From NCBI GenBank assembly GCA_964353025.1, contig CAYGUN010000001.1:1-45168 (forward strand): 45,168 nt of DNA, written 5' to 3'. The translations under genes were made by a program, and so were the position numbers. The notes under the pieces are model-generated. The model worked only from the letters and a program-made list of their open reading frames with translations, was not told the DNA's origin and made no database searches. The stretch is from an uncultured Bacteriovoracaceae bacterium (GTDB lineage Bacteria; Bdellovibrionota; Bacteriovoracia; Bacteriovoracales; Bacteriovoracaceae). Shown one piece after another: positions 2,344 through 23,046 of the stretch (its first letter is position 1; every line of letters starts with the position of its first letter).

Positions 2344-4413
2344 ATGAAATTATTTATTAGCTTAATCTTCGTTATTTCAACGGCTTCAAGCGCATTTTCA
2401 ACTGAATTTAAGCATTTTAAGCTCAAAGGTCTACTTAAGCAGAAAGACCAAAGTGAGAACTCTCAAACAAAGAGAGTGATGGAGTCATCTGTAAGCTTAG
2501 GTATTGATGATGCGCTTTATGACAAAATTTTTGGAAGAAAAATTATTCAAGAAGGATTTTCAAAATCAACAAAAGAAGAAGCTCCATCTCCATTTGAAAA
2601 CTCACTCTTATTTAAAAAAATCATTGATATGCTTAAAGGAAGTTATGATGATATAGGAAAAACGCAGGCCCAAACACTGCTTAAACATAAACAAGACTTT
2701 GGTGGTGGTGTTGAGAATTTCTCAGGCTTTTCTTGGGAAAAACCAGCTGGCACATTTTCAATTGGTGTAAATAGGCAACTCTCTCCAGATCTTTTTAATT
2801 CAGAAAGATGGATCGTCCATGACACATTTGTGATTTCAATTGATGCGACTACTTTTCTGAATAAACTAAGCCAAGAAAACCTTATTGCAATAGATGCAGG
2901 AGTCATCAGTGCTTTTGCTGGAGTCACTTGGCAAAGAGTTTATAGCACCTATCATTTTTCATCCTCATTTGCCTCTGGTATTATGGCAGATTTCTCGAAG
3001 CTATTTATGCCATTTATTTATTTTAATCCTAATAAAATAGCGGACCTCCCTCAAGATGAAATATTAATGATGGAAGACTACTTCTCCTTCAGAGCAGGAG
3101 GTATTGTAACCACTCCTCCCGTTTATGGTTTTTCTTTTTCTGCAGGGGCCCACATGGCCTTTTCTAAAACAAGTAAGGTCAGCATTCAATCTCTGGGAAT
3201 TGAAGACCCGCGAGATAAAGATGAATTTTTAAGGGTCACAACAGAGAATATAAAATCAAAAGCCGTTGGGGCTGCGGCTTCGGTTCAACTTGATTTTTTT
3301 AATATTTTAAAACTGACACTCTTGAGTGCTGAACTGACCTATGAGTTAGAACAATCTCAAAAAAATCATCTCAAATTTTACTGGGAAGATATTCCTCAAA
3401 TTACGGCGAAGGGAAGCTATTCTAAGGAGTTCAAAAAACTGCTTAAAGGAAAATTTATAGATATTGATTTTTTCACAGATCGTGTCGTAGGTCACGAAGA
3501 AAGGCTCAGTGAAAACCTTACTTCTCGTTACGGAATTCTGACTATCTCAAAAATGAAAAGAACTGATACTGACTATGTTCGTATTGTTAAAGGTGATGAA
3601 AGCAAAACATTCTTCAACCACCATAGTGAAAATATTAAAGTGGTACAAAGTTTTTTCAGTAAACTTTTTAGCGTATTTATAAATCAAAAACTTGATTTTG
3701 ATGTGGCAGTAAGAAATAATTCACTTTCTCTCAAATCCATTGATATTGAATATGAATCAAATAAAAAAGAAAATGATATGATCGTCGATGATGAAGAAAA
3801 ATTCTCTATTCTTATTACTCATCAATATCAAGCGGCAAAAGTTCATAAGAAAAAATTTTTCAATAAAAAAGCTCGCTATTTTCTAGAACGCTATACACCC
3901 TTGGGGAGAGAGTATTCACAACTTATCAAAGATAAGAAATTAGAAAGTCCTGTTTCATTTGAAAGTATGGTGCGTGTTCAAAAGGAAGGGCTTTACTATT
4001 TTCACCATCTCTCTGACTCAAAAGTCTTTTATACCATTGCAAAAAATTGTGGTATGAGTAGTTCTCAAGCTAGAAAATATGCCAGTGAATCATATAGGAG
4101 AAGATATCTTCGTCGCTGGAGGGTAGGGAAAAAGGCCTGCGTAAAAAGTACTGGAAATCTCTTCTATGACTATATAAGTGGTGTTCGAGAAAAAGGCACC
4201 ATGAATTTAAAAAAATTAAAAGCCTTTCTTACTAAATTTTATAAAAAAAATGAAAACTATCGCTATTTCCTGGACCTTTTTGGTGAAGATAAGGTATTTG
4301 TTCATGGAAGCCTAGAGGCGATTACAGACCAAGGTCTCCCCTTTCAAACTTATTTTAAAAATGGTGAGTTTAAAGGTTATGGAGTCATTGATAATTATAG
4401 AAAGAAAAACTAA
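2344..4413 (+). CDS. Hypothetical secreted protein (689 aa), no recognisable domain
   Basis: Long uninterrupted ORF with a Sec-type signal peptide (MKLFISLIFVISTASSAFS). I see no catalytic or family motif. Confidence 0.6.
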   Translation: MKLFISLIFVISTASSAFSTEFKHFKLKGLLKQKDQSENSQTKRVMESSVSLGIDDALYDKIFGRKIIQEGFSKSTKEEAPSPFENSLLFKKIIDMLKGSYDDIGKTQAQTLLKHKQDFGGGVENFSGFSWEKPAGTFSIGVNRQLSPDLFNSERWIVHDTFVISIDATTFLNKLSQENLIAIDAGVISAFAGVTWQRVYSTYHFSSSFASGIMADFSKLFMPFIYFNPNKIADLPQDEILMMEDYFSFRAGGIVTTPPVYGFSFSAGAHMAFSKTSKVSIQSLGIEDPRDKDEFLRVTTENIKSKAVGAAASVQLDFFNILKLTLLSAELTYELEQSQKNHLKFYWEDIPQITAKGSYSKEFKKLLKGKFIDIDFFTDRVVGHEERLSENLTSRYGILTISKMKRTDTDYVRIVKGDESKTFFNHHSENIKVVQSFFSKLFSVFINQKLDFDVAVRNNSLSLKSIDIEYESNKKENDMIVDDEEKFSILITHQYQAAKVHKKKFFNKKARYFLERYTPLGREYSQLIKDKKLESPVSFESMVRVQKEGLYYFHHLSDSKVFYTIAKNCGMSSSQARKYASESYRRRYLRRWRVGKKACVKSTGNLFYDYISGVREKGTMNLKKLKAFLTKFYKKNENYRYFLDLFGEDKVFVHGSLEAITDQGLPFQTYFKNGEFKGYGVIDNYRKKN

Positions 4414-4435: not shown

Positions 4436-5317
4436 ATGATGATTGATGCAGAAAAAGCTATTTTACTTTTAAAAGAAGAACAAGTTGTTGCTATACCGAC
4501 TGAGACCGTTTATGGACTCGCCGGTAGAATTGATTCTGAAATTGCACTTCGAAAAATTTTTGAAATCAAACAAAGACCTTTGTTCGATCCTCTCATTGTC
4601 CATGTGGCCAGTATTGAGCAGGCCAAGACTCTTACTTCAAATTGGAATGAACTCGCACAAAAATTAGCAGAAAACTTTTGGCCCGGGCCATTAACAATGG
4701 TGCTACCTAAATCTGATTCAGTGAATCCTTTGATTACTTCTGGACTTAATAGAGTCGGTATTCGATGCCCAAATCACCCTATTGCTCTTGAAATACTAAG
4801 AAAGCTTAATATTCCACTTGCTGCTCCTAGTGCTAATAAGTTTAAGATGACCTCTCCCACTAGACCTGGCCATGTTATTGATGAGTTTGATGCACAAGTT
4901 GAAGTGGTTGATGGAGGAGAAAGTGAAGTAGGAATTGAATCAACAGTCATTGGTATTTTTGAAAATGAAGTTTGTATTTATAGACCAGGAATGATTACCA
5001 AAGAGATGTTACAAGTTTGCCTAGGAGAAAGTGTAAAGGTACACGAACAAACAAGCCCAGTGGCACCAGGACAAATGGAAGATCATTATCAACCGAAAAG
5101 CCCTTTTTATCTGATAGAAGAAGGCCAAGAGGCGCCTACTGGAGCCTTTGAAATAAAACTAGGTGATAAGCCTGAAATTGCAGCGAGACAGTTATATTCA
5201 AAACTAAGAGAAGGATCTGAAAAATCTCCTATTCTCTTTATTTGTTTAACTAAACATTTTTATAATCCAGGCTGGGCGGCCATTCTTGACCGGATAATTA
5301 AGGCAAGCTCAAAATAA
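4436..5317 (+). CDS. tsaC: L-threonylcarbamoyladenylate synthase (Sua5/YwlC/TsaC family, with C-terminal Sua5 domain)
   Basis: YrdC-fold motifs are present: AIPTETVYGLAG, KQRPLFDPLIVHV, GPLTMVLP, VGIRCPNHP, PLAAPSANKF. An extra C-terminal domain of about 90 aa follows. Confidence 0.85.
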   Translation: MMIDAEKAILLLKEEQVVAIPTETVYGLAGRIDSEIALRKIFEIKQRPLFDPLIVHVASIEQAKTLTSNWNELAQKLAENFWPGPLTMVLPKSDSVNPLITSGLNRVGIRCPNHPIALEILRKLNIPLAAPSANKFKMTSPTRPGHVIDEFDAQVEVVDGGESEVGIESTVIGIFENEVCIYRPGMITKEMLQVCLGESVKVHEQTSPVAPGQMEDHYQPKSPFYLIEEGQEAPTGAFEIKLGDKPEIAARQLYSKLREGSEKSPILFICLTKHFYNPGWAAILDRIIKASSK

Positions 5318-7042
5318 ATAACTACAATTTAACTTTATTTCCTTAAGCAGCTCACTCACGGGAATAATTCGCTCAAACCTCTTCCCTTGAAGTTGTTCCG
5401 GCCCCTGAGAATCTACGTATTTCATCACTTGAATAATTCCACCAGAGACGACTTCTTTCCACCCCTTAGGCTTAAGCATCATATTTTTTCTAAAGTCATG
5501 CAGCCTATTTTTGTCGAGCCAAACTTGGTAAGCTTGGTTAAGTGCTTTATGGGCCCGAATTGAAGTTTGAGTATAGTTAACTCTCCCATCATCATGATAG
5601 ATAATATCAAAGAGAAATCCTGTTTCTCCAATAGTGACAGAATCTGAGTGCCCGCCGACATTAGACAGTACCGGTATTGTCCCCACATTCTGGGCCATCA
5701 TTTGAGACTGTCCACTTGGTTCAAAGATTGAGCCTTGAAAATAAATATTTGAATAATAAATAAACTCTTTCTCTAAATTGTCACTAAAAGGAAAATATTT
5801 TACTTAATGGGGAAACCGATCACTTAATTCAATAAGCTTGTTTCTAAAATAAACTCCCTCTGAGCTATCATTGTAAGCATCTCCCGTTATAAGAAACTTA
5901 AAATCAATTTCAGGGTCATGAATGACTCTTTCAATAAATCCATCGGCCCCCCAAAAATACTCAAATCCCTTTTGTTTCGCGATTCGAGATGTGAGAGTAA
6001 TAATTTGCGTATTTTCTCCATAGCTGTCTGGAAAGTATTTGTTTAGTAAGTTCGCTCGCCCCATATCCTTATTTAATTGCTCATCAGCACTAAAAGAAAA
6101 AGGCAAGACGCTTTGGTAATTTTTATCAATTAAGCTTGGGTCCCATTGTTTTGTATCAATACCATTTAAGTTCCCTCCTGTTCTAAACTCTCGTGCCTTG
6201 CGCTGATAAATGGATTCATTACCGGCCCCAAATCGACTATCCATCACTTCCTTCATATAGTTGGAGGATACAAAATGTGTAAAGTCAGAAAGCTCTACTG
6301 CCGATTTTAATGCATTTATACTATCCCCCATCATCATGGCAGAGTGAAACTTAGAATTTATCCCTAACCAACTTAGTAAGTAGTTTGAATAAATTCCTTG
6401 GTATTGAGCATTGTGAACCTGTGAAATAATATGAGGAATTTTACCTTTCAAATTCCCATGCAATATGGACTCTTTTCTCATTTCCAAAAAAGGTGCAAAA
6501 AAGCCAGAATGATGATCTTCTAGAAAAATAAAATCGGGCTGTATTGAATCATTTGTTTGAGATAAAAACTGAACCCATGCTTTTGCAAAAAAACCAAAAG
6601 ACTCTCCGGGGCTTTCATGTATTGTGTAAGTGAATTCCTCTATATTGTTTTCAAAATAGTTTGAGTACCCCTGCGCAGGTCTATGTTCAACCATTTGAAC
6701 TTTAACTCTTTTATCCTGGGGGTGTTCAAACTCAATAACTCTAAAAGAAGCATGAACTTCATTTTGATGGCCTAAATTAACAACAAATGTTTCAGATTTT
6801 TTAATACCGGTGTAATTATCGAGATTATTCAGAACTTTAGTATAAGCAGGCATAATTACTTTGGCCTCATGCCCATTTTCAATAAGCCCTAAGGCCTGCC
6901 CCCAAGTGGCAATCTTAAGCCCACCTGAACCTTGAATTTTGTCTAATTCACTTGATACCAAAAAAACTGTTTTCGAAAAAACAGGATTTACAACTAAAAG
7001 AAAAATAATAAGCAGAGTAAATCTATGCAGACTCATGAACAA
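5309..7042 (-). pseudogene. Glycogen/starch-synthase-like GT5 glycosyltransferase interrupted by a single in-frame TAA (complement of 5804-5806)
   Basis: Track ORFs 5804..7042 and 5309..5701 are in the same frame. Reading through the TAA gives ...LIELSDRFPH*VKYFPFSDNLEKEFIYYSNIYFQGSIFEPSGQSQMMAQNVGTIPV.... The N-terminal part (LVSSEL..GSGGL....VIMPAY) and the C-terminal part (FEPSGQSQMMAQNVGTIPV..VGGHSDSV..ETGFLF) match GlgA-type motifs. There are no frameshifts. Confidence 0.6.
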
Positions 7043-7236
7043 AAACCTTTATTAAATATGCCCGCATTCTATAGAAAAGAGGGCCATGGTCAATGCCTAC
7101 AGAAAAAAGATGAGATAAAGCTCTAAAAATACAGCTCAACTCAATGATTAAATGTAAAAATACCAAGGTTTTATTTTTTATCTCGCATTTCATAACGCAC
7201 AGGGGTATATGAATTAATAATTGCCATTGGAGCTTT

Positions 7237-7830
7237 ATGAAATACTTAGTATTACTAGCAGCCTACCTCTCATTTTCAACAGCTTGTTTGGCACAAGTTG
7301 AAAAAAAATTTGTCATTGGAAATATTAGCGCCTTTGAAGCTAACCAGTACTTAGCGCCAATACTTTATCTAAAAGTTGATAGAAATAACGATATTATTTC
7401 AGAAGTCATTCTTCCTGATGCTAATCCAAGTATCGAAAGTGGAAGTTTTGATAATATTATTCCTTGGAATGGAGTAAGACTTCCTGAAGAATTTCGGTTA
7501 AAAGTTGTAAAAAAACGAAGGGTAATCAAAACAAAAACTTATAAAAATTCAAATCTAATTGAGAACAAGCTTACAAAGATAAAAAAAAAGGTCAGGCAAA
7601 TTATTTATATAACTGAATCAGGAAAAGAAATCCTTTGTGCTGAAGAAGAAGGTCGATTATTTAGATTTTTTGCTTTGAAAAGCAGTTGTTCTCTCCATAT
7701 TGATAAAAATGTTAATGATTACGCGGAAGTTTCAAGAGTAAAAAATAGAGATAAAGCTCAAGAAAGACTTGAAGAAAAAGTATTGAATAAAAATACAACT
7801 CTTACTTATTTTCTTAAGGTTAAAATTTAG
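7237..7830 (+). CDS. Hypothetical secreted protein (197 aa)
   Basis: Signal peptide MKYLVLLAAYLSFSTACLAQ followed by a Lys-rich body. No recognisable motif. Confidence 0.5.
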   Translation: MKYLVLLAAYLSFSTACLAQVEKKFVIGNISAFEANQYLAPILYLKVDRNNDIISEVILPDANPSIESGSFDNIIPWNGVRLPEEFRLKVVKKRRVIKTKTYKNSNLIENKLTKIKKKVRQIIYITESGKEILCAEEEGRLFRFFALKSSCSLHIDKNVNDYAEVSRVKNRDKAQERLEEKVLNKNTTLTYFLKVKI

Positions 7831-8033
7831 AATTCTTCAATATAAGGATTATATTCTTTAGCATAAAGAATGAGGTCAATCACTTCACGGGCCGCACCTA
7901 TTCCACCTTCTTTAAATAAAGCATAATCGGCATATTCTCTTAACTCTATTGGAGCATGAGGAACTGTTCTGTTGCACTAAAGCCAGCTTTCTTCATCAGA
8001 GGGAAATCAAATAGCTCATAATTTTATCATCAC
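7827..8033 (-). pseudogene. Diverged, frameshifted copy of the 3' end of kdsC (about the last 70 codons)
   Basis: The reverse complement translates to ELFDFPLMKKAGFSAT (16/16 identical to intact KdsC). A 5-nt indel follows, then PIELREYADYALFKEGGIGAAREVIDLILYAKEYNPYIEEF* (35/41 identical to the intact C-terminus). Many of the nucleotide differences are synonymous. Homology to 9789-10001 stops near 8033. Confidence 0.8.
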
Positions 8034-8185
8034 GTACGGGAGATTACTCACGTATATCCAAACCAATTCGGTTAGCAGTGGCTTCCATGAAATAAGTATA
8101 AATTACATCCTAGCGCCTTCGCATTGACACAGAGCGGATTTTTCTACTATCTTGTAATTCTAAATAAATTGACTAGGCAGGCCAT

Positions 8186-9685
8186 ATGAAACTCCAACTA
8201 GCTATAATCTTAGCAACAACTTTACAACTTACCCAAGCAGCAGATCTAAGTATTCCTACTATAAAACAAGAGCTTATCAAAAACTTTGCAGTTACTGATT
8301 TTCTAGAGAAGCAGATAAGGTCACATTTTAGAACACAAAATGCGCCCCAAGCATTCAAAGAGCTTGTAGATTTTTCTCACCCCAATATGTCCCCCATTAT
8401 CTCCAAGATAATGAATATATTTACTGATGTACGATCATTTAGCTCTAGTGCCGCTCATTTTGTTATAAATGAAGCATATACTCATAAATTCTCAATTAAA
8501 GTGTTTGAATGTATGGAATCTAATTTCTTAAAAAATCTCTATTTAAATGCTATTGGTGAATCGAAGTTTGCAAATGATGATGCCTTCAAAAAAACAGTTG
8601 TTGTTTATTTTAGTAAAATACTAAAAGAAAGACAATCCTCTTCTCAAATTATGACAATGGAAGCAAGTACGAGAACACCTAAAATTGTTCAAGTTGGAAA
8701 TTCAACTCATCAGTCTGGTTGGACAGGGTTTGACTCAGGTCCAATATTCAAAACAAACATCACGACTCAAAATACTAACGATTTTGGAGTTAAAGAAATT
8801 TATCAATTTTATAATTTCATTATAAATAAAAGAGAAGGGATTGGCTCTCTTATTCTCCTGGAAGCTATATTCCATAAAGAAATTAGTGACCTCTACGTAG
8901 ATGTTGTTCTAGATGGTTATTTAAATAGTTTTCCTTATAAACATCATAATAAACTTCTCACTGATCTCTTTTTTAGTGAGCCTATTGGTTTCACTAAGTT
9001 TGTTCACACCAAAAACAATATTCAACAATTAATACGTGAGTCAGAAAAAAGAGTCGAACTAAGTGAAGCTTTCACAAATGGTTATATCAATGGAGTCAAT
9101 GGCCATGGTCACCGTTATAAATATGCAAGTGTAAAAGCAATGACTCTAAGCGAAGTCATAGAAAAGCACTATGGTCATAATCCCACTGCTGCTATTAAAT
9201 TAATCAAAAAAACAATGAGTTCGGCCACATCAGAAATTAATGTGCAAGTAAGAGAAGTTGTGAAATTCTTGGTAGACAATATCCATGACCCTTACCTGGC
9301 CAATCTCTTTTTAGACCTTATTCTAGAGACAAAATACAAAACTATTGATGTTAATTTCATCTATTCTCTCTTTATTGGTGACATTCATCCTAACCTAGAG
9401 AAAATCTCTTCTTTTTTCGATGATATGGAGAGCAATCATCCAAATTTAAAATATAAAGTGCATAAAGCTAAAGCAAAAACAATTGTGGCCCGAATCTCAG
9501 GAACCCCACAAATGGCAAGATCAGTAAACATTGATTTTTACGGAGAAATTTTTTATGAAAAACTACTGCTTCAAGAATTAAGAGATTTCAAATCTCATTC
9601 AACCAATTGGCTTGATATCGAAAAGGTAAATGCCATTGATACTTGGATATCTAAACTTAGTGAATGTAGTAACAAGTTTCAGTAA
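8186..9685 (+). CDS. Hypothetical secreted protein (499 aa), sole gene of the insert between the two kdsC 3' copies
   Basis: Long ORF with signal peptide MKLQLAIILATTLQLTQAAD. No recognisable domain. Confidence 0.6.
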   Translation: MKLQLAIILATTLQLTQAADLSIPTIKQELIKNFAVTDFLEKQIRSHFRTQNAPQAFKELVDFSHPNMSPIISKIMNIFTDVRSFSSSAAHFVINEAYTHKFSIKVFECMESNFLKNLYLNAIGESKFANDDAFKKTVVVYFSKILKERQSSSQIMTMEASTRTPKIVQVGNSTHQSGWTGFDSGPIFKTNITTQNTNDFGVKEIYQFYNFIINKREGIGSLILLEAIFHKEISDLYVDVVLDGYLNSFPYKHHNKLLTDLFFSEPIGFTKFVHTKNNIQQLIRESEKRVELSEAFTNGYINGVNGHGHRYKYASVKAMTLSEVIEKHYGHNPTAAIKLIKKTMSSATSEINVQVREVVKFLVDNIHDPYLANLFLDLILETKYKTIDVNFIYSLFIGDIHPNLEKISSFFDDMESNHPNLKYKVHKAKAKTIVARISGTPQMARSVNIDFYGEIFYEKLLLQELRDFKSHSTNWLDIEKVNAIDTWISKLSECSNKFQ

Positions 9686-9788
9686 TATGGGTACCGAAAA
9701 ATTTCAAACATATAAAAAAAGGGATCTCAATACAAACTTAAAGCAAGGGAATTAAAAAAGAATGTATTCCTTAGGCATTTACTTAAGT

Positions 9789-10340
9789 TTAAAATTCCTC
9801 AATTTGAGGAGTAAATTCTTTGGCATAAAGAATAAGATCAATGACCTCACGAGCAGCACCCATTCCACCTTCTTTAAATGAAACATAGTCAGCATACTCT
9901 CTTAACTCTATTGGGGCATGGGGTACAGTTGCGCTAAAACCAGCTTTCTTCATCAGAGGGAAATCAAATAGTTCATCTCCCATAAAAAGAATCTCATCAT
10001 CTTGAGCTCCAGAAGCTTGTTTAACTTCATTATAGGCCTCTCGTTTGTCTTCATTGCCCATCTTCATATAATCCAGGCCCAGTAAAGAAAAGCGCTTTAA
10101 AACCCCAACACTATCTCCACCAGTAATAATTCCCACCTTAAGACCTGCTTGCTTAAGAAGCTTTAAGCCAAAACCATCAGAAGCATGAAAAAAACGATTA
10201 AAGCCGACTTCTTCTCCTTGAAAATAAAGCCTACCATCGGTTAAGACTCCATCCACATCAAAAAGGGCCACTTTAATTTTAGAAAGTTTTTCTTTCAATG
10301 GAGGAAGTTGGGTTCTTATATCAAAATCTCTATTATTCAT
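9789..10340 (-). CDS. kdsC: 3-deoxy-D-manno-octulosonate 8-phosphate phosphatase (HAD-IIIA)
   Basis: HAD motif I is FDVDGVLTDG, followed by GIITGG and GDELFDFPLMK. The track start at 10346 is a TTG. The ATG at 10340 overlaps the kdsA stop (ATGAATAA), which suggests translational coupling. Confidence 0.85.
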   Translation of the reverse strand: MNNRDFDIRTQLPPLKEKLSKIKVALFDVDGVLTDGRLYFQGEEVGFNRFFHASDGFGLKLLKQAGLKVGIITGGDSVGVLKRFSLLGLDYMKMGNEDKREAYNEVKQASGAQDDEILFMGDELFDFPLMKKAGFSATVPHAPIELREYADYVSFKEGGMGAAREVIDLILYAKEFTPQIEEF

Positions 10341-11127
10341 TAACAACTCTTTTTATTTCTAATAATTTGGACACTATCTTCTTAACGTCCCCAAGAGGGA
10401 TTTGCGTCGTCGCATCTGATAACGCTTTCTCTGGATTAGGATGGGCCTCCATAAAGATTCCATCTGCACCTGCAGCTACTGCGGCCTTAGCGAGAGTAAA
10501 AATCTGTTCACGTTTACCTCCGGTTGCCTTACCTAGACCCCCTGGTCTTTGAGCGCAATGAGTGGCGTCATGAATGGTTCTCACACCAAAGCTTTTCATA
10601 ATTTGAAAGCTGGCCATATCAACGACTAAATTATTGTAACCAAAGCTTGTTCCTCGTTCAGTTAAGAGAATTTTATTAAGTGGTAAAAAATTTAAGGCCT
10701 TATCCACAATATTTTGAGTTTCCTCAGGAGATAAGAACTGACCTTTTTTGACTTTAAGTTGCCTGCCATATTTCTTACAAGCTTCTGCCCCTGCTAAAAT
10801 CATGTCAGTCTGACGGCAAAGAAAAGCTGGAACTTGTAATGTTCCCACCGCTTGGGCCACAGCTTCAGCTTGCTCGGGATGGTGGAAATCAGTAATAGTT
10901 GGTAAATCAAATTCTTTCGAAACTTTCTCTAATATTCGAAGTCCCTCTTCAAGTCCAGGTCCTCGGTAAGAATCAATAGCACTACGATTGGCCTTATCAA
11001 AACTTCCCTTAAAATGTAGAGTTATATCAGATTTAAATTCTTCTAAGTCTTTCTTAACTCGCTCTGCCACAGTCATAGCAAGCTCTTCACTTTCAAGTAC
11101 ACAGGGCCCTATAAAAAAATCCATCAT
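10333..11127 (-). CDS. kdsA: 2-dehydro-3-deoxyphosphooctonate aldolase (KDO-8-P synthase)
   Basis: 264 aa. The motifs GPCVLES, FKGSFDKANRS, LQVPAFLCRQTD, VKKGQF, LTERG.SFGYNNLVVD and DATH are typical of KdsA. ATGA overlap with pyrG. Confidence 0.92.
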   Translation of the reverse strand: MMDFFIGPCVLESEELAMTVAERVKKDLEEFKSDITLHFKGSFDKANRSAIDSYRGPGLEEGLRILEKVSKEFDLPTITDFHHPEQAEAVAQAVGTLQVPAFLCRQTDMILAGAEACKKYGRQLKVKKGQFLSPEETQNIVDKALNFLPLNKILLTERGTSFGYNNLVVDMASFQIMKSFGVRTIHDATHCAQRPGGLGKATGGKREQIFTLAKAAVAAGADGIFMEAHPNPEKALSDATTQIPLGDVKKIVSKLLEIKRVVNE

Positions 11128-17670: not shown

Positions 17671-17947
17671 TTTAATTATTTTTACTCTATTGCTAGGTTT
17701 ATCTCATGCCCAAGTTATTCAGGTGAGTTACGTAAAGGAGCATGACCTTAAAAACTTGGCCACAGTCTTAGAAGAGAATTACAAAATCCCCAAATCACTT
17801 ATTACCTATAAAAAAACGAACTCATGCAAAGATACAAAGAAAAATGGCATCGCTCATTTCTGTCTAGATGTGAAAGGTGGATTTAGAATTTTATATGTAG
17901 ATCAAAAAAAAATGAGAAGATCGTTTAAGATCTTCTCACAAATATAA
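17657..17947 (+). CDS. Small secreted protein of the Flp locus (about 96 aa)
   Basis: The in-frame ATG at 17657 is preceded by GGAG and yields a signal peptide, MFRFSLIIFTLLLGLSHAQ. The longer track ORF (from 17606) overlaps the previous gene. Confidence 0.4.
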   Translation: MFRFSLIIFTLLLGLSHAQVIQVSYVKEHDLKNLATVLEENYKIPKSLITYKKTNSCKDTKKNGIAHFCLDVKGGFRILYVDQKKMRRSFKIFSQI

Positions 17948-18138
17948 TGGAAAGCTTTATGAATTACTTACTTTCGTGTACCGCAAATTTTGGAGTTGTG
18001 CCTTTATTTTTATTCTCGGCTTTTCTCTTTTTTCCTGCACTTTTTACTTTGTTCTTACGAATAATACGTGTCTTTTTAGTTCTTGAACCCATGTTATTAA
18101 CCTCATCTAGCAAAGATAGACCCATATATTTATCTTTC

Positions 18139-19413
18139 ATGAACAGGTATGTCAAAATTTTATTAATCCTTACTTCAATTTTACTACCTAGCTCGGATTT
18201 AGTGGCCGCTGAGAGTATTTTCCTGGCAAAAGGAGAGCAACAAAGCATTAAGCTATTGAAATTAGGTCAATTCTCTATTGGTAATAAAGATATCCTCTCC
18301 CACAAATATATCGAATCAAAAGGCCAGTTCCTCATAAAAGGTAAGGCGGTAGGCTTTAGTGACCTCATCCTGTGGGAAAAAGGGAAAAAGCAGGTCTACC
18401 ATATCTATGTCTTAGATAAACGCTCCCAATTAAAAAACCAGCAACTTGAAGAAATTCTCAGTTCCCAAAAAATCCCTCATGAGCTTAAGGGAAACCTCTT
18501 TATTACTAAAGGTGAAATTAATGAGCTTGGCCAATATCTACTTTTAAAAAAACTGGAGCAGAAATTTAAAAACTCTTTATTTGTCCAATCTTACTTTTCA
18601 AATAAGTTACGAAATGAACTTATTGCAAAAGCTTACGAACAAATAATGGGTATCGGTTTTTATGATATCTCTTGTGAAGATGAGATGCTTACCATTAATT
18701 GCCTTTTAAATTCTGGTGACAAAAATCTTAAGCCAAAAATTAAATTTCTAACAGATAACTATTTCATCCAATTTATTCACACTGATATCAAGGATAATCA
18801 CCGGAACCTTAAGGTTAAATTAAAGTTTGTGCAATTTGAAAGACTTGACGGCGAAGAGTTCTCATTTGGTGCCCATAAAATTAATGCCAGCCTTGGTGAT
18901 TTATTTGACAAAGGATTACGCGCCCTCATTGAAAATAATATTCTCTCCTTATCTGAGAATAGTATCAATGTTTCAACACTGGCAGAGCCTGAAATAACCA
19001 TGCAATTAGAGCAAGAAGCCACCATTCGAGTCGGTTCTGAAATTCCCTATCAGGGAGTAAACAATTCAAATCAAGTCTCTATTATCTCTCAAACTCTATG
19101 GAAGTTTGCAGGCCTCAGAGTTAAAGTGAAAATGACCAAACTCAAAGAAGGCTATTCACTCACTTATACTAATGAATTAACTTCCCCCGATGCTCAGAAT
19201 ATCCAAGGCTCAAAAGAATCTGCGACTTTACTCGTTCCTTTAAATAAACCCACTACTTTATTTAAAATTGCTTTTAGAAGCCAGGCCGAATCAAAAGCTG
19301 GCATACCTTTTTTGAACGAAATCCCTCTGCTTGGAAGGATTTTTCGCTCTTCCAATAGAACTGACAACTTTAAACATATATATGGATATATAAAAGTAGT
19401 AACTGATGAATAA
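18139..19413 (+). CDS. Tad-type secretin (CpaC/RcpA family)
   Basis: From the ATG at 18139 there is a signal peptide, MNRYVKILLILTSILLPSSDLVAA. A CpaC/RcpA-type pilus N-domain follows (IFLAKGEQQSIKL...FSIGNKDIL...LIKGKAVGFSDLILWEKGKK..YHIYV). The secretin C-terminal motif GIPFLNEIPLLGRIFRS is present. The track start at 17947 would add a 64-aa Phe-rich extension. Confidence 0.8.
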   Translation: MNRYVKILLILTSILLPSSDLVAAESIFLAKGEQQSIKLLKLGQFSIGNKDILSHKYIESKGQFLIKGKAVGFSDLILWEKGKKQVYHIYVLDKRSQLKNQQLEEILSSQKIPHELKGNLFITKGEINELGQYLLLKKLEQKFKNSLFVQSYFSNKLRNELIAKAYEQIMGIGFYDISCEDEMLTINCLLNSGDKNLKPKIKFLTDNYFIQFIHTDIKDNHRNLKVKLKFVQFERLDGEEFSFGAHKINASLGDLFDKGLRALIENNILSLSENSINVSTLAEPEITMQLEQEATIRVGSEIPYQGVNNSNQVSIISQTLWKFAGLRVKVKMTKLKEGYSLTYTNELTSPDAQNIQGSKESATLLVPLNKPTTLFKIAFRSQAESKAGIPFLNEIPLLGRIFRSSNRTDNFKHIYGYIKVVTDE

Positions 19414-20485
19414 TTTAAGACAAAAATGCTATCAAGTTTCAACCCAGGCCCTCTCCCACGGCCATATTATTGACTTAGATGAACTCTTACTTGAGTTTGA
19501 TGAGCTTAACAATACTCAACGTGAGCAAATACATACTTGGTATAAGAATGTATTCGAAGTAGGTTATATTTATTCACTACTCTCTTCTGACATGTTAGAG
19601 ATTCATTTTCATAACTATCAAAATGTCACCATTCACAAAAATAACAAAGAAAATGAAACCCTTCGTATTGATTTGGAACCAGAGGACTTTCAACTCTCCC
19701 TTGAAATCATGACTTTAGTTAATGAGCAAAAATGGAATCAACTTAATCCTTTTGTTAGCTTTACCTTTAACAAAAACAATATGAAATTAAGGGCCACACT
19801 CACTCATGAATGTATTAGTGCGACGAAAAACTCTAAGCTATTTTTAAGAGTGTTACAGAAATCGAATTTCCAATTCCAAGACTATGGAATATCTCCAGTA
19901 CAAAAATCTTTTTTCGAAGAAATAATAAGAAGTAAAAAAAATATCATTATTTCAGGTTCAACCGCATCAGGGAAAACATCTTTTTTAAAACTCTTACTTT
20001 CACTGATTGATGAAAAGAAACATTTATGTATTTTAGAAGATACTCATGAACTTTATACTGAAAGCCCTTACTTCACTCATTTGTTACAAAATGAAAACTC
20101 AACGCTTAAAGATTATTGTGCTTATGCCCTCCGAATGAGTCCAGAAAGAATCATTCTCGGAGAAATCCGCTCTCATGAAATTGTGCCTTTTGTTCTTGCC
20201 ATGAATAGTGGACATCAAGGTATTCTCTCCTCTATCCATGCCAATAATGCGGAAGATACTCTCCACCGTATGGCCTTATTATTTAACTTATTCTCTGAAT
20301 CAAAAGAGATGACTTATGAGTTAGTTCTCGGACTCATTTGTAAGAATGTTGACTATATTGTCCATATGGAAAATAAAAAGGTGAATGAAGTGATTAAAGT
20401 AGTGGGGTCTGAAGGACCCCATATATACTTTGAATCAATTGACAATATTAGGCCCGAGTTAGTCTCTTATACTTCAATCGCTTAG
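19406..20485 (+). CDS. CpaF/TadA/VirB11-class secretion ATPase (short form, 359 aa)
   Basis: Walker A SGSTASGKTS, then LCILEDTHEL, ALRMSPERIILGEIRSHE and the His box NSGHQGILSSIHANNAEDTLHRM. The start overlaps the secretin stop (ATGAATAA). Confidence 0.85.
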   Translation: MNNLRQKCYQVSTQALSHGHIIDLDELLLEFDELNNTQREQIHTWYKNVFEVGYIYSLLSSDMLEIHFHNYQNVTIHKNNKENETLRIDLEPEDFQLSLEIMTLVNEQKWNQLNPFVSFTFNKNNMKLRATLTHECISATKNSKLFLRVLQKSNFQFQDYGISPVQKSFFEEIIRSKKNIIISGSTASGKTSFLKLLLSLIDEKKHLCILEDTHELYTESPYFTHLLQNENSTLKDYCAYALRMSPERIILGEIRSHEIVPFVLAMNSGHQGILSSIHANNAEDTLHRMALLFNLFSESKEMTYELVLGLICKNVDYIVHMENKKVNEVIKVVGSEGPHIYFESIDNIRPELVSYTSIA

Positions 20486-22127
20486 GCGTAAGAGAATCTT
20501 CTCCAAGTCTGCGTTTTTTATCTTCAAGATAATCCTCGAAGTTGCCTTCAAACCATATAACATTTCCTTCGCCTTCAAAGGCCAGGATATGAGTGGCAAG
20601 ACGGTCTAGAAAATACCTATCATGGGAAATAATAACTGCACAACCAGCATAGTCTTCTAATGCCTCCTCTAATGCTCTCAGGGTATTAATATCTAAATCG
20701 TTGGTCGGCTCATCCAGCATAAGAACGTTAAACTCTTCTGTTAACATCTTTGCAAGATGGACTCTATTTCTCTCACCACCAGATAACTCTCCCACTTTTT
20801 TGTGATGGTCATCTCCTGAAAAGTTAAATTTAGAAATATAGGCACGAGAGTTTACTTCCTTACCACCAATATTTAAAACATCTCCATTATTGGCAATTTC
20901 ATCTAAAACAGTTTTGTCTGAATCCATCAAACGCCCTTGATCGACATAGGCAAATTTAACAGTTTCTCCAAATGTAATTTCTCCTGAATCAGGTTTTTCT
21001 TGGCCCGCTATCATTTTAAACATGGTTGTCTTACCAGCACCGTTTGCTCCAATAACTCCAACAATTCCACCAGGAGGTAATTTAAAACTCATGTTTTCAT
21101 AAAGAACCTTATCTCCAAAGGCCTTAGTTACGTTTTCAAAGTTAATGACATTATTTCCAAGTCTTGGTCCAGGTGGAATCCACAAAGCGCGAGTCTCTCC
21201 TGTTTTTTCAATTTTAGAGTTTTCAAGCATCTTTTCATAATTCGCAACCCGGGCCTTACCCTTTGCCTGTCTGGCCTTTTGTGAACTTTTAATAAATTCA
21301 AGCTCACGTGCCATGGCCTTTTGCATTTTAGATTGCTCTTTCTGTTCTTGGGCCATTCTTTTTTGTTTTTGCTCTAGCCAAGAAGAGTAATTGCCTTCCC
21401 AAGGAATTCCTTTACCTCTATCAAGCTCTAGAATCCATCCCGCAACATTATCTAAAAAATACCTATCGTGGGTAATAGCAATAACTGTTCCCTTATAATT
21501 TTGTAGATGTCTTTCTAACCAAAAGACTGTTTCAGCATCAAGGTGGTTTGTAGGTTCATCCAACAGAAGAATTTCCGGTTCTTGTAAAAGCAGACGACAA
21601 AGGGCCACCCTTCTTTTTTCCCCACCAGATAAGACTCCAATTTTTTGTTCACTAGGAGGACATCTTAAAGAGTCCATAGCAAGCTCAAGTCTGCTATCTA
21701 AATCCCAAGCATTGGCCGCATCTAGTTTATCTTGTAATTTACCTTGTTTTTCTAAGAGAGCATTCATTTCATCATCACTCATGGGTTCTGCAAACTTAGC
21801 ATTTAATTCATCAAATTCAGTAAGTAGATCAACAGTCTCTTGAGCACCTTCTTTAACAATATCCATCACTGTTTTATCAGGATCAAGCTGGGGCTCTTGC
21901 TCTAAGTAGCCAACCCTATAACCTTTTGAAATATGTAACTCTCCATTAAAGTCAGTATCAATCCCTGCGATAATTCTAAGTAGTGTCGATTTACCGGCCC
22001 CATTAAGACCCAAGATTCCTATCTTTGCACCATAGTAAAAAGAGATTGAGATATCTTTTAAAACTTGCTTTTTGCCGGGATAAACTTTCCCACAGCGGTT
22101 TAAAGAAAAAATGACTTGCTTGTCCAT
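20448..22127 (-). CDS. ettA: Energy-dependent translational throttle protein EttA (ABC-F ATPase)
   Basis: 559 aa. Two ABC cassettes (GLNGAGKST / LSGGEKRR, GANGAGKTT / LSGGERNR) joined by a charged linker. Length and N-terminus are typical of EttA. Confidence 0.92.
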   Translation of the reverse strand: MDKQVIFSLNRCGKVYPGKKQVLKDISISFYYGAKIGILGLNGAGKSTLLRIIAGIDTDFNGELHISKGYRVGYLEQEPQLDPDKTVMDIVKEGAQETVDLLTEFDELNAKFAEPMSDDEMNALLEKQGKLQDKLDAANAWDLDSRLELAMDSLRCPPSEQKIGVLSGGEKRRVALCRLLLQEPEILLLDEPTNHLDAETVFWLERHLQNYKGTVIAITHDRYFLDNVAGWILELDRGKGIPWEGNYSSWLEQKQKRMAQEQKEQSKMQKAMARELEFIKSSQKARQAKGKARVANYEKMLENSKIEKTGETRALWIPPGPRLGNNVINFENVTKAFGDKVLYENMSFKLPPGGIVGVIGANGAGKTTMFKMIAGQEKPDSGEITFGETVKFAYVDQGRLMDSDKTVLDEIANNGDVLNIGGKEVNSRAYISKFNFSGDDHHKKVGELSGGERNRVHLAKMLTEEFNVLMLDEPTNDLDINTLRALEEALEDYAGCAVIISHDRYFLDRLATHILAFEGEGNVIWFEGNFEDYLEDKKRRLGEDSLTPKRLKYKRLTRA

Positions 22128-22197
22128 AAGACTCCTTTAAGAGTGAAATTTTAAGGCATTTAACCAAAGTTCACTCAAATGCGCAAAGGATAATGCG

Positions 22198-23046
22198 CTA
22201 TAGTATAAAAGAGTCTATCAGTGCGTAGAGATAGATAAAATAAGACGGCAATAAGAGAGTAAAAATAAGACTCAGTTTTAAAACCTGACTTACTTTTTCA
22301 AGCTCTTCCAAGATAAGTGAATACTCATTCCAAAGCTCTTCTTTTAAGTTTTCTAACTCCTCTTGAATTTGCCCTCCTCTGCGTTGGAAGTTTGAAATAA
22401 GACTCTCTAAACGATTGAGATAGATCTTAAATCTTCTTGGGTTCTGCTTAAAACTGCTCTTTAATTTTGATTGCTCATAGGCCTTTTTAAGTGGAAGTGA
22501 GGATTGGGTATTAATCTGAAAAATATAGAGTTTTTTTAAAAATGAACAAATAAAGCTCACCTTTAAATTTTTAAAATAACAAAACACGGGATAATAAAGA
22601 CAGTAAGCACTTGCCTGTAAAAGAAGAATAATAAACTTAAAGCTTGAGTCAATTTTGACTATCTCTAAATACTCGGTCGAAAATATCATGGCCCAAGTCA
22701 TGGAAGTTATAAGAAAAAATTGAATATACCCCTCAAGCACAATCTTTTTGACTCGCTTTTTGAATATCTCCTCTTTCATAAAAGATTTTTTAATTTTCCT
22801 CAAAGCTTCAATTGGTCTTGCTCCCGTTTTACGACCTAAGTCCAAGATATAGCTCACAAGTTCACCAAAAAAAGGATAGTCAGGAACCTTGGTCTGCCCT
22901 ATTTGCGAAGGAGCACTAATAAGAATTTGGCTTAAGAACGTGCCAAAATCGACTTCTGTGTTGACCTGCTTTCTATTGACACCTCTTGCCATTGAATAAA
23001 GGTATGAAAGAATCGTAACAAATATAATGTATAGCAAAAATTTCAT
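22198..23046 (-). CDS. Polytopic inner-membrane protein with two T2SSF (GspF/TadB/TadC)-like repeats; candidate pilus platform protein
   Basis: 282 aa with four hydrophobic segments arranged TM, about 87 aa loop, TM-TM, about 95 aa loop, TM. Both loops end in T2SSF-like strings (GRKTGARPIEALRKIKKSFMKEEIFKKRVKK...; RRGGQIQEELENLKEELWNE....LLLPSYF). The assignment rests on pattern only. Confidence 0.4.
   Translation of the reverse strand: MKFLLYIIFVTILSYLYSMARGVNRKQVNTEVDFGTFLSQILISAPSQIGQTKVPDYPFFGELVSYILDLGRKTGARPIEALRKIKKSFMKEEIFKKRVKKIVLEGYIQFFLITSMTWAMIFSTEYLEIVKIDSSFKFIILLLQASAYCLYYPVFCYFKNLKVSFICSFLKKLYIFQINTQSSLPLKKAYEQSKLKSSFKQNPRRFKIYLNRLESLISNFQRRGGQIQEELENLKEELWNEYSLILEELEKVSQVLKLSLIFTLLLPSYFIYLYALIDSFIL

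Follow-up and report, generated by a model that had tools for sequence, protein, structure and literature searches.

Islands and ICEs are known to enter the 3' ends of protein-coding or tRNA genes and to supply a replacement 3' end, as ICESt1 and ICESt3 do in fda and as do the islands that target yicC or tRNA genes. Comparative genomics also recognizes hotspots at which chromosomes gain genes between conserved core genes. Foreign DNA can also come in by homology, without a dedicated recombinase, through Campbell-type single crossover or homology-facilitated illegitimate recombination (HFIR), processes studied in Acinetobacter, S. pneumoniae, P. stutzeri and E. coli (PMC3240628 and references given in PMC5361080). 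In E. coli, a single crossover of a partially homologous circular molecule produced duplications of the homologous locus of 109-950 bp (PMC3240628). Effector loci of the Rhs, CDI and T6SS types undergo C-terminal displacement (Kirchberger et al. 2017, PMC5361080, and Jackson et al. 2009, cited there), and for T6SS and Rhs arrays it has been suggested that gene 3' ends are displaced in an HFIR-like manner (PMC5361080).

Here we focus on a duplicated kdsC end in an uncultured Bacteriovoracaceae bacterium (assembly GCA_964353025.1, from a biofilm metagenome). The window, i.e. the whole stretch of DNA that was analysed, is the 45,168-nt (45-kb) contig CAYGUN010000001.1. The locus represents a known kind of event; we see no new mechanism or system in it.

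Gene context of the kdsC locus

The features of the locus are as follows (coordinates are those of the window).

7237..7830, plus strand: 197-aa ORF with an N-terminal signal peptide; no family, self-hit only
7727..8033, no strand: left copy of the repeat, to which the 197-aa gene contributes its working 3' end (7727-7830) and kdsC a 3' pseudo-fragment
7827..8033, minus strand: kdsC 3' pseudo-fragment, ~65 alignable codons, without a start codon
7983..8014 (= 9940-9971), no strand: 32-nt identical block, the longest perfect match within the repeat and a candidate crossover site
8034..9698, plus strand: unique insert of 1665 nt (152-nt leader, 499-aa ORF and 13 nt downstream)
8124..8153, plus strand: sigma-70-like promoter match TTGACA-18-TATCTT, 33 nt 5' of the 499-aa ORF; consensus match only
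8186..9685, plus strand: ORFan of 499 aa with a signal peptide at the N-terminus (MKLQLAIILATTLQLTQA/AD), all alpha-helical by prediction
9699..10001, no strand: right copy of the repeat, with a degenerate 197-aa-type 3' remnant (9699-9788; frameshifted, with in-frame stops) and the working kdsC 3' end (9789-10001)
9789..10346, minus strand: kdsC (KDO-8-phosphate phosphatase, HAD-IIIA/YrbI family), intact, 185 aa, at the end of a kdsB-pyrG-kdsA-kdsC cluster

The family assignment of kdsC is firm: the protein scores 120.3 bits against the NCBIfam model TIGR01670 (cutoff 106.95), Pfam HAD families match it, 3018 kdsC homologues are listed, and the gene lies in a KDO-pathway context (kdsB-pyrG-kdsA-kdsC) whose order is also kept in relatives. 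The window holds no tRNA or tmRNA gene that could serve as an alternative attachment site, and the search for RNA families in 7000-10400 gave nothing above noise. Exact-protein look-ups returned no record for proteins of the window.

The 197-aa gene that converges on kdsC has only itself as a hit among 5.8 billion proteins (word-indexed search) and no Pfam or NCBIfam family. Its C-terminus is weakly similar (E 0.012) to a 170-aa protein of the relative L022, whose gene is placed and oriented in the same way and likewise runs over the kdsC stop (by 4 nt); the 197-aa gene is probably a fast-evolving positional counterpart of this 170-aa gene.

Extent and divergence of the repeat

The 3' end of kdsC had been described as present twice, once as a functional end (9789-10001) and once as a pseudogene (7827-8033), and alignment and repeat finder agree with this description. 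The duplication is larger than first described, in that it takes in the 3' end of the neighbour gene as well as that of kdsC. The two copies form a direct repeat of ~305 nt (7727-8033 and 9699-10001), which extends across the point where the 197-aa gene and kdsC converge stop to stop. Each copy has one functional half, which belongs to the 197-aa gene in the left copy and to kdsC in the right one. Identity is 84% between 7823-7968 and 9785-9930 and 91% between 7966-8019 and 9923-9976, with a 5-nt indel in between. The repeat continues for ~100 nt beyond the kdsC stop, where 9699-9784 is a degenerate version of 7727-7815 (59 out of 85 positions identical, three indels). The local score of this remnant is 24, whereas 3000 dinucleotide shuffles average 11 (sd 1.7) and do not exceed 19; none of 3000 random 99-mers from the window reaches it. 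The 32-nt identical run lies within a conserved peptide motif, and its length is not clearly above chance.

The pseudo-copy carries two lesions. The 5-nt indel is a tandem duplication (CTGTT CTGTT, 7964-7973), and 13 nt are missing between 8019 and 8020, after which homology returns for 12 nt (8020-8031 versus 9990-10001, 10 out of 12 identical). The original prediction counted 16/16 and 35/41 identical residues on either side of the 5-nt indel; retranslation gives the same first stretch (ELFDFPLMKKAGFSAT, 16/16) and a longer second one past the frameshift (VPHAPIELREYADYALFKEGGIGAAREVIDLILYAKEYNPYIEEF*, 39/45). As it stated, the stop codon of the 197-aa ORF (TAG, 7828-7830) shares bases with that of the pseudo-copy (complement of 7827-7829), but this abutment does not mark the pseudo-copy as the native end: the working kdsC end is also trailed by a ~90-nt remnant of the same neighbour 3' end, so both copies once adjoined a 197-aa-type gene.

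In protein the two kdsC ends are identical at 58 of the 65 aligned codons and share the same HAD fold. Their nucleotide sequences differ at 28 out of 195 sites (14%), 22 of which are third codon positions. By NG86 over the 65 codons there are 20 synonymous and eight non-synonymous differences (dS 0.78, dN 0.054, dN/dS 0.07). Under a null model in which the pseudo-copy arose by local duplication and decayed neutrally, at least 65% of the differences should be non-synonymous; the model is rejected (P ∼5e-5). Thus the claim that the copies diverged under purifying selection in different lineages, and did not arise by recent local duplication, holds: most of the divergence dates from when both still functioned as coding sequence. 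The remnant of the 197-aa gene is more diverged (31%) than the pseudo-fragment, with its 14% and strong third-position bias.

The donor was probably a fairly close lineage, as the two copies are far closer to each other than either is to the nearest relative, L022 (dS 1.5-2.3). With L022 as an outgroup, 26 differences over 61 codons split 13, 9 and 4, and this polarization is uninformative; synonymous sites are saturated at that distance. Five out of six amino-acid differences are derived in the pseudo-copy, which is compatible with decay and gives no direction.

The insert and the kdsC-Sua5 interval in relatives

The insert had been said to carry one orphan secreted protein and no integrase, and the analysis agrees, with a single signal-peptide ORFan and no integrase gene. 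The 499-aa protein finds only itself, both in a word-indexed search of 5.8 billion proteins and in a full HMMER search of 1.84 billion cluster representatives; it has no Pfam, PHROG or NCBIfam family, and no locus was found for its gene in the metagenome or viral contigs scanned. Its single-sequence AlphaFold2 model is all helical, with a pLDDT of 46, a quality too poor for a fold search. Sigma-70-like sites are no more numerous in the region than in shuffled sequences. The insert has no terminal inverted repeats or transposon-like ends and no second copy in the window. No further copy of the 499-aa gene, next to an integrase or otherwise, and no donor lineage turned up in any database searched, so it is solely the linkage to the xenologous repeat that points to a foreign origin of the insert. 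Base composition is uninformative on this point, because GC content in 300-nt windows is low not only in the insert (29-36%; kds genes, 34-43%) but also in the adjacent orphan 197-aa gene (down to ∼27-32%).

We compared the locus among four syntenic genomes (the window and the relatives L022, L023 and L024), which are at family-level distance. The relatives have uninterrupted sites, as expected from the original prediction, all of them in other species: in L022 kdsC meets its convergent 170-aa neighbour directly, in L023 Sua5 directly faces kdsC with nothing between, and in L024 a single unrelated gene separates the two. The gap between kdsC and Sua5 holds zero, one or two unrelated ORFans in the three relatives, mostly with a signal peptide, and across all four genomes the interval contains zero, one, two or four unrelated lineage-specific features and no mobile-element genes. 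On the evidence of gene content the kdsC-Sua5 interval thus appears to be a recurrent gene-gain site for lineage-specific secreted ORFans in Bacteriovoracaceae. By tblastx, positions 5300-9800 share nothing with the relatives' loci except the kdsC pseudo-fragment, and none of the relatives examined has two kdsC copies at the locus. A 514-aa gene of L022 was considered as a relocated homologue of the 499-aa gene and rejected (BLASTP E 1.1).

Origin of the insertion

On either side of the insert lies a copy of one ~305-nt chromosomal segment, in direct orientation; the two copies are homeologous and have a history of purifying selection, as expected if one of them came from a donor. We therefore favour, at about an even chance of its being right, a homology-driven insertion by single crossover or HFIR, with ~2 kb coming from a related lineage. 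A Bacteriovoracaceae lineage, related yet distinct, would have supplied a segment with the 499-aa ORFan gene linked to a ~305-nt copy of the 197-aa/kdsC junction, and this segment would have entered via homologous pairing in the 3' part of kdsC. As to the route, we infer either a single (Campbell-type) crossover between the chromosome and a circular molecule made up of the insert and the junction fragment, or a one-sided HFIR of a linear fragment, anchored in kdsC and with its illegitimate join at 8033/8034; both routes would give the same product, an insert between two homeologous junction copies, and neither would need an element-encoded recombinase. Selection may then have kept one working half per copy (for the 197-aa gene the left 3' end, for kdsC the right one) while the redundant halves decayed, the pseudo-fragment by its 5-nt duplication and 13-nt deletion and the 197-aa remnant by three indels and its 31% divergence. 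This account is weakened by the need of a single crossover for a circular intermediate and by the rarity of HFIR in experiments.

The crossover probably took place in or near the 32-nt identical block, in which case the pseudo-fragment would be the displaced native end and the present kdsC end would be donor-derived. Several strains coexist in the samples, 2-10% divergent from one another, and a 147-nt contig from one of them is the sole independent evidence on this point, leaning weakly towards the pseudo-copy as the native end. The intact kdsC of this co-occurring strain has the pseudo-copy state at five out of seven sites that separate the two copies; over the 79 nt compared there are five changes unique to the working copy, two to the pseudo-copy and three to the other strain, counts that are statistically weak.

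The main alternative, and the model of the original prediction, is a decayed site-specific integrative element, with the kdsC 3' end as attB, a surrogate end in attP, and the integrase and nearly all cargo lost. Several observations agree with it: the frame of the target is restored (kdsC is intact, 185 aa) while the displaced end is kept at the far side (7827-8033), relatives have empty sites, the two copies are xenologous, and the 32-nt perfect block could serve as a core. But a Pfam scan of all 41 ORFs of at least 120 aa found no integrase, transposase, resolvase or other recombinase, nor a recognizable fragment of one, either within the insert or elsewhere on the 45-kb contig; the unique DNA amounts to no more than 1665 nt, almost exactly one ORF and its leader; and a literature search on kdsC as an island attachment site found no island that targets it. 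We saw no short exact att core that stands clearly apart from the surrounding homology; the 32-nt block is embedded in the 305-nt diverged repeat. This homology crosses the kdsC stop into the neighbour remnant and so resembles captured chromosomal DNA and not an attP arm. Since the homeologous repeat covers parts of two genes, a homologous single crossover or a one-sided homology-facilitated insertion fits better than attP x attB, and an element with a surrogate end, as first proposed, is in our judgement unlikely, though it stays ahead of the accounts below.

It is a good deal less probable that a local insertion with a ~305-nt target duplication was followed by homologous replacement of one side (e.g. 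kdsA-kdsC with the right copy) by a diverged lineage, so that the xenology of the repeats would be unrelated to the arrival of the insert. Homologous allele replacement is common in bacteria, and the symmetric structure, each copy consisting of one functional half and one pseudo-half, would fit, as would the uneven divergence between the window and a co-occurring strain along kdsC: 11 differences in 117 nt (9898-10014) versus five in 240 nt (10019-10258). This scenario nevertheless needs two independent events and an unexplained mechanism for the target duplication, and the contrast between 14% in the pseudo-copy and 31% in the 197-aa remnant is easier to accommodate if the right copy came as one donor block. 

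Less probable again, and very doubtful, is an ancient duplication, in which two full-length kdsC paralogues beside 197-aa-type genes were long under selection and one of each later lost its 5' part. Two functional paralogues would also give a low dN/dS, but two separate deletions precisely flanking the ORFan would be required, no relative has a second kdsC at the locus, and the kdsA-linked kdsC of the co-occurring strain resembles the pseudo-copy and not the kdsA-linked copy of the window.

Independent contigs across the junctions

We searched eight runs for Logan contigs matching the locus; runs X5-X8 gave spurious short matches only, and no joints that would mark an empty or excised site were reported from these contigs. 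A contig of run X2 (7825-8032) covers the entire pseudo-copy with an exact match, one of run X1 (7985-8954) spans the junction between pseudo-copy and insert, and the junction between insert and kdsC is spanned by X1 9501-9838 and X2 9735-9929. The X1 contigs 7985-8954, 8937-9501 and 9501-9838 link up without a break, leading from the pseudo-copy across the insert to the kdsC end. Unitigs break exactly 30 nt inside the 32-nt block (starts at 7985 and 9942), which is what a shared k-mer node would produce, and the join of the 197-aa gene and the pseudo-copy (7729-7824) is the sole stretch without an independent contig. The concern that the duplicated ends are an assembly artefact is therefore not borne out by these contigs: a chimera of two strains, or of a chromosome and a circular molecule, threaded through shared repeat k-mers is the least probable account of all, for although 2-10% divergent strains occur together, the graph branches at the 32-nt block and 7729-7824 has no independent contig, the X1 path is unbroken and X2 7825-8032 crosses the shared block with both pseudo-copy lesions, so that the left and right sides cannot be paired the other way.

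The insert is 100% identical in all Logan contigs covering 8034-9698, from four samples, while its flanks show 2-10% variants; this fits a recently spread cassette and equally a single carrier strain. We consider it improbable, somewhat more so than the replacement scenario but not quite so much as ancient paralogues, that the ORFan and the ~305-nt junction copy form a minimal recombinase-free mobile cassette, which would loop out via its flanking repeats and re-enter related lineages by single crossover, with the junction as an address tag. If true, this would be a general route for predatory bacteria to exchange secreted ORFans at conserved hotspots.

Comparison with known systems

Like islands and ICEs in gene 3' ends, the kdsC locus has an incoming 3' end that keeps the target intact, a displaced end that forms a direct repeat at the far boundary, and empty sites in relatives. 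It differs in having a single-ORF insert with no integrase, excisionase or mobility gene, and ~305-nt repeats of ∼85% and 69% identity that reach into the neighbour gene instead of a short exact core. As in gene-gain hotspots, the kdsC-Sua5 interval holds unrelated lineage-specific features without mobile-element genes, a likeness drawn from four family-level genomes only; recurrent gain there may help explain the large stock of orphan secreted proteins in these predators.

The displacement known from Rhs, CDI and T6SS loci is similar in that a module recombines via a conserved upstream part and brings a new 3' end, leaving the old end downstream as an orphan, and in that HFIR has been proposed. 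There, however, the new end is another toxin domain with its immunity gene, and arrays grow by repeated events, whereas here it is the equivalent end (58/65 identical) of an HAD phosphatase with a housekeeping role, and an unrelated convergent gene without a toxin or immunity signature in Pfam, PHROG or NCBIfam makes up the cargo.

The closest likeness is to Campbell-type crossover and HFIR: foreign DNA enters by one stretch of homology without a dedicated recombinase, and the insert is flanked by a direct duplication, here of ~305 nt and homeologous, compared with 109-950 bp in E. coli (PMC3240628). The kdsC locus would be a natural event, read from sequence in an uncultured Bacteriovoracaceae with an inferred donor, and the substitution pattern of its scar indicates that DNA from a different lineage took part. 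It suggests that a lineage-specific, probably secreted gene can join the end of a housekeeping operon without mobile-element machinery and with both flanking genes intact. The homology segment here differs from those systems in straddling two convergent gene ends, and it is for this reason that both genes survive.

Organization of the locus

The window, a 45,168-bp contig, derives from an uncultured Bacteriovoracaceae bacterium. The closest relatives of the kdsC product in protein searches belong to Bacteriovorax, Bacteriovoracaceae and Oligoflexia MAGs, and sequence near-identical to the window was found only in biofilm metagenome runs, all of one 2019 study. The gene order around the insert is as follows.

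4436-5317, + strand: Sua5
5309-7042, - strand: split glgA-like gene
7237-7830, + strand: 197-aa ORF
7827-8033, - strand: kdsC pseudo-fragment
8186-9685, + strand: 499-aa ORF
9789-10346, - strand: kdsC, with kdsA, pyrG and kdsB beyond it

Alignment and a repeat search both find the kdsC 3' end twice (7823-8019 and 9785-9976, 84-91% identity, with a 5-nt indel): once as the end of the intact gene (the working copy) and once as a broken pseudo-copy. The translation of the pseudo-copy is identical to that of the working copy at 16 out of 16 residues before the frameshift, as first reported, but at 39 out of 45 residues after it rather than 35 out of 41. The indel is a tandem duplication in the pseudo-copy (CTGTT CTGTT, 7964-7973); a second lesion in this copy is a 13-nt deletion between 8019 and 8020, and the 12 nt that follow align again (10/12 identical). 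The stop codon of the pseudo-copy does overlap that of the 197-aa ORF.

The repeat extends beyond kdsC. Between the 499-aa ORF and kdsC, the 103 nt from stop codon to stop codon contain a segment (9699-9784) that aligns with 7727-7815, in the terminal ∼100 nt of the gene for the 197-aa protein (59/85 identical, three indels). This alignment scores 24; 3000 dinucleotide-preserving shuffles average 11 (sd 1.7) and score at most 19, and none of 3000 random segments of the window equalled it. The duplicated unit is therefore ∼305 nt long (7727-8033 and 9699-10001), larger than the original prediction had it, and lies across the point where the 197-aa gene and kdsC converge, stop to stop. In the left copy the 3' end of the 197-aa gene is working and the kdsC end is broken; in the right copy the kdsC end is working and a remnant of the 197-aa gene is broken.

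Divergence of the two copies

Over 65 aligned codons the two kdsC ends differ by 20 synonymous and 8 non-synonymous changes (dS 0.78, dN 0.054, dN/dS 0.07), and 22 of the 28 differences fall in third codon positions. Local origin of the repeat, with neutral drift of the pseudo-copy ever since, predicts a non-synonymous share of at least ∼65%; with 8 out of 28 seen, this model is rejected (P about 5e-5). Most of the divergence therefore predates the decay and accrued in different lineages, while both copies were working kdsC ends. The duplication first noticed in the sequence is thus real and was well described, and its core inference, that the copies are xenologous and not a local duplication, is correct. 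The distance between the copies is far below that of either to the nearest relative, genome L022 (dS 1.5-2.3), which points to a fairly close relative as the second lineage. No trace of this second lineage was found in any database searched.

Assembly support and strain variation

The assembly was checked against Logan contigs of the biofilm runs. A contig from run X2 (7825-8032) is an exact match to the pseudo-copy over its full length, with both lesions and with a 32-nt block that is identical in the two copies (7983-8014 and 9940-9971). Overlapping contigs from run X1 (7985-8954, 8937-9501 and 9501-9838) lead from the pseudo-copy through the entire insert to the kdsC end, with another X2 contig (9735-9929) adding to them. 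Unitigs start at 7985 and 9942, that is, exactly k-1 inside the 32-nt block, as a real repeat predicts. The X2 contig crosses this block and so rules out the other way of joining left and right sides; the stretch 7729-7824 is covered by no independent contig.

Contigs of the insert are 100% identical in four samples, and variant alleles of the flanks diverge by 2-10%. Either one strain alone carries the insert or strains share it unchanged, two readings that look the same here because Logan contigs drop rare variants. At least one co-occurring strain is seen (7000-7700 and 9898-10540; runs X1, X2, X4 and X8), in which kdsC and kdsA diverge by 2-3% and the 197-aa gene with its upstream spacer by 7-10%. 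A variant contig found in X4 and X8 departs wholly from the window sequence upstream of 7227 (loose end ...GATTGAGAATAACCT), so the DNA that precedes the 197-aa gene, where the glgA-like gene sits, differs between strains.

Which copy is native

The original prediction took the pseudo-copy as native because it abuts the neighbouring 197-aa gene. This argument is not decisive, since the 3' end sequence of that gene stands in both copies. Compared with homologues, five out of six amino-acid differences between the copies are derived in the pseudo-copy, which fits decay and gives no direction. The one piece of independent evidence is a 147-nt X1 contig of the co-occurring strain (9898-10044), in which an uninterrupted kdsC runs on into the 5' part of the gene, without the 5-nt duplication and with the 13 nt present. 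It agrees with the pseudo-copy at five out of seven sites separating the two copies, and on a three-taxon tree over 79 nt the branch to the working copy has a length of 5, that to the pseudo-copy 2 and that to the co-occurring strain 3. On these few sites we lean, short of proof, towards the pseudo-copy as the displaced native end.

The insert and its ORF

The unique DNA (8034-9698, 1665 nt) consists of a 152-nt leader with one promoter-like match, the 499-aa ORF and 13 nt. An open frame of this length is far beyond chance in DNA of ∼33% GC, and the protein starts with what, by eye, is a typical Sec signal peptide. Searches of 5.8 billion clustered proteins and 1.84 billion representatives (the latter by HMMER) returned only the protein itself; it matches no Pfam, PHROG or NCBIfam family, and no such locus was found among metagenome or viral contigs. 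The 197-aa protein is likewise an orphan in protein searches. A single-sequence AlphaFold2 model of the 499-aa protein is all helical and unreliable (pLDDT 46). From its signal peptide and the character of the neighbouring accessory genes, the 499-aa product may be an accessory protein that this predatory bacterium secretes or keeps in its periplasm.

The insert was described as a single gene without integrase, and Pfam finds no integrase, transposase or other recombinase among all 41 ORFs of at least 120 aa in the window. The window has no tRNA genes, and within it the insert has neither terminal inverted repeats nor a second copy.

The kdsC-Sua5 interval in related genomes

L022 and the window are collinear from DsbD to a SPOR-domain gene (kdsA and pyrG proteins 89% identical, kdsC 73%). 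Uninterrupted sites are present in related genomes of other species, and the number of lineage-specific features in the interval between the two convergent genes ranges from four in the window to two, one and none in genomes L022, L024 and L023.

Contents of the kdsC-Sua5 interval in four syntenic genomes
Window (5309-9788): glgA-like gene, 197-aa gene, kdsC pseudo-fragment, 499-aa gene
L022 (10534-12755): convergent 170-aa gene with a 4-nt overlap with the kdsC stop; unrelated 514-aa gene
L024 (6555-7136): one unrelated 193-aa gene
L023 (6552-6555): empty; kdsC directly faces Sua5

Because its contents vary in this way, the interval is a site of recurrent gene gain. The accessory proteins in all four genomes have signal-peptide-like starts throughout and do not resemble one another, and the interval looks like a hotspot for secreted ORFans; the 170-aa protein of L022 and the 197-aa protein share weak similarity at the C terminus (E 0.012). 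In the more distant L001, Sua5 is not at this position and kdsC is followed by a convergent 239-aa ORF whose start is not signal-peptide-like.

The divergent glgA-like gene (GT5 starch or glycogen synthase), which is not in the syntenic interval of L022, L023 or L024, is split into a 412-aa ORF with a signal-peptide-like start (model positions 3-312) and a 130-aa ORF (386-465). With ∼70 model positions absent across the 100-nt gap between them, the gene has probably decayed to a pseudogene or else diverged badly. On the other side of Sua5, a 689-aa protein (2344-4413, + strand) has a signal peptide and no Pfam domain; its L022 counterpart is 57% identical, and L022, L023 and L024 all have a gene for 683-700 aa at the matching position beside Sua5. 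This looks like a protein conserved among Bacteriovoracaceae, with no function assigned. A cluster at 17947-23046 (secretin, T2SSE-type ATPase and T2SSF-like protein, with an ABC-F type ATPase gene among them) fits Tad or type IV pilus-like machinery and looks ordinary for this group.

Possible route of integration

The structure seen would follow if a circular molecule carrying the insert and a junction fragment had recombined with the chromosome in one homologous crossover. One-sided homology-facilitated illegitimate recombination (HFIR) of a linear piece of donor DNA, with kdsC as its anchor, would give the same product. Both routes can do without a recombinase encoded by the element, in keeping with the absence of recombinase genes among the ORFs scanned. 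The 32-nt block is the longest identical stretch of the repeat in the present sequences, and presumably the only one long enough for efficient RecA pairing; had the crossover taken place within it, the native copy would be the left one and the right one would come from the donor, in line with the weak strain evidence.

Foremost among the rivals is a site-specific island whose integrase has since been lost. Such an island accounts for two features, the reading frame made whole again and the old end left behind, but not for the length of the repeat (305 nt), its divergence throughout and its reach into the neighbouring gene, nor for a cargo that amounts to one gene almost exactly. The remaining rivals, namely duplication in place with later allele replacement, ancient paralogues and a chimeric assembly, are less parsimonious or contradicted in part.

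Recombination through homology, as in the crossover and HFIR routes, has precedents: in Escherichia coli, single crossover of circles duplicated 109-950 bp of the homologous locus (PMC3240628), and at T6SS and Rhs loci gene 3' ends are proposed to be displaced in an HFIR-like manner (PMC5361080). The event at kdsC is of a known kind, an insertion that duplicates its target homology at a hotspot, and not a new system.
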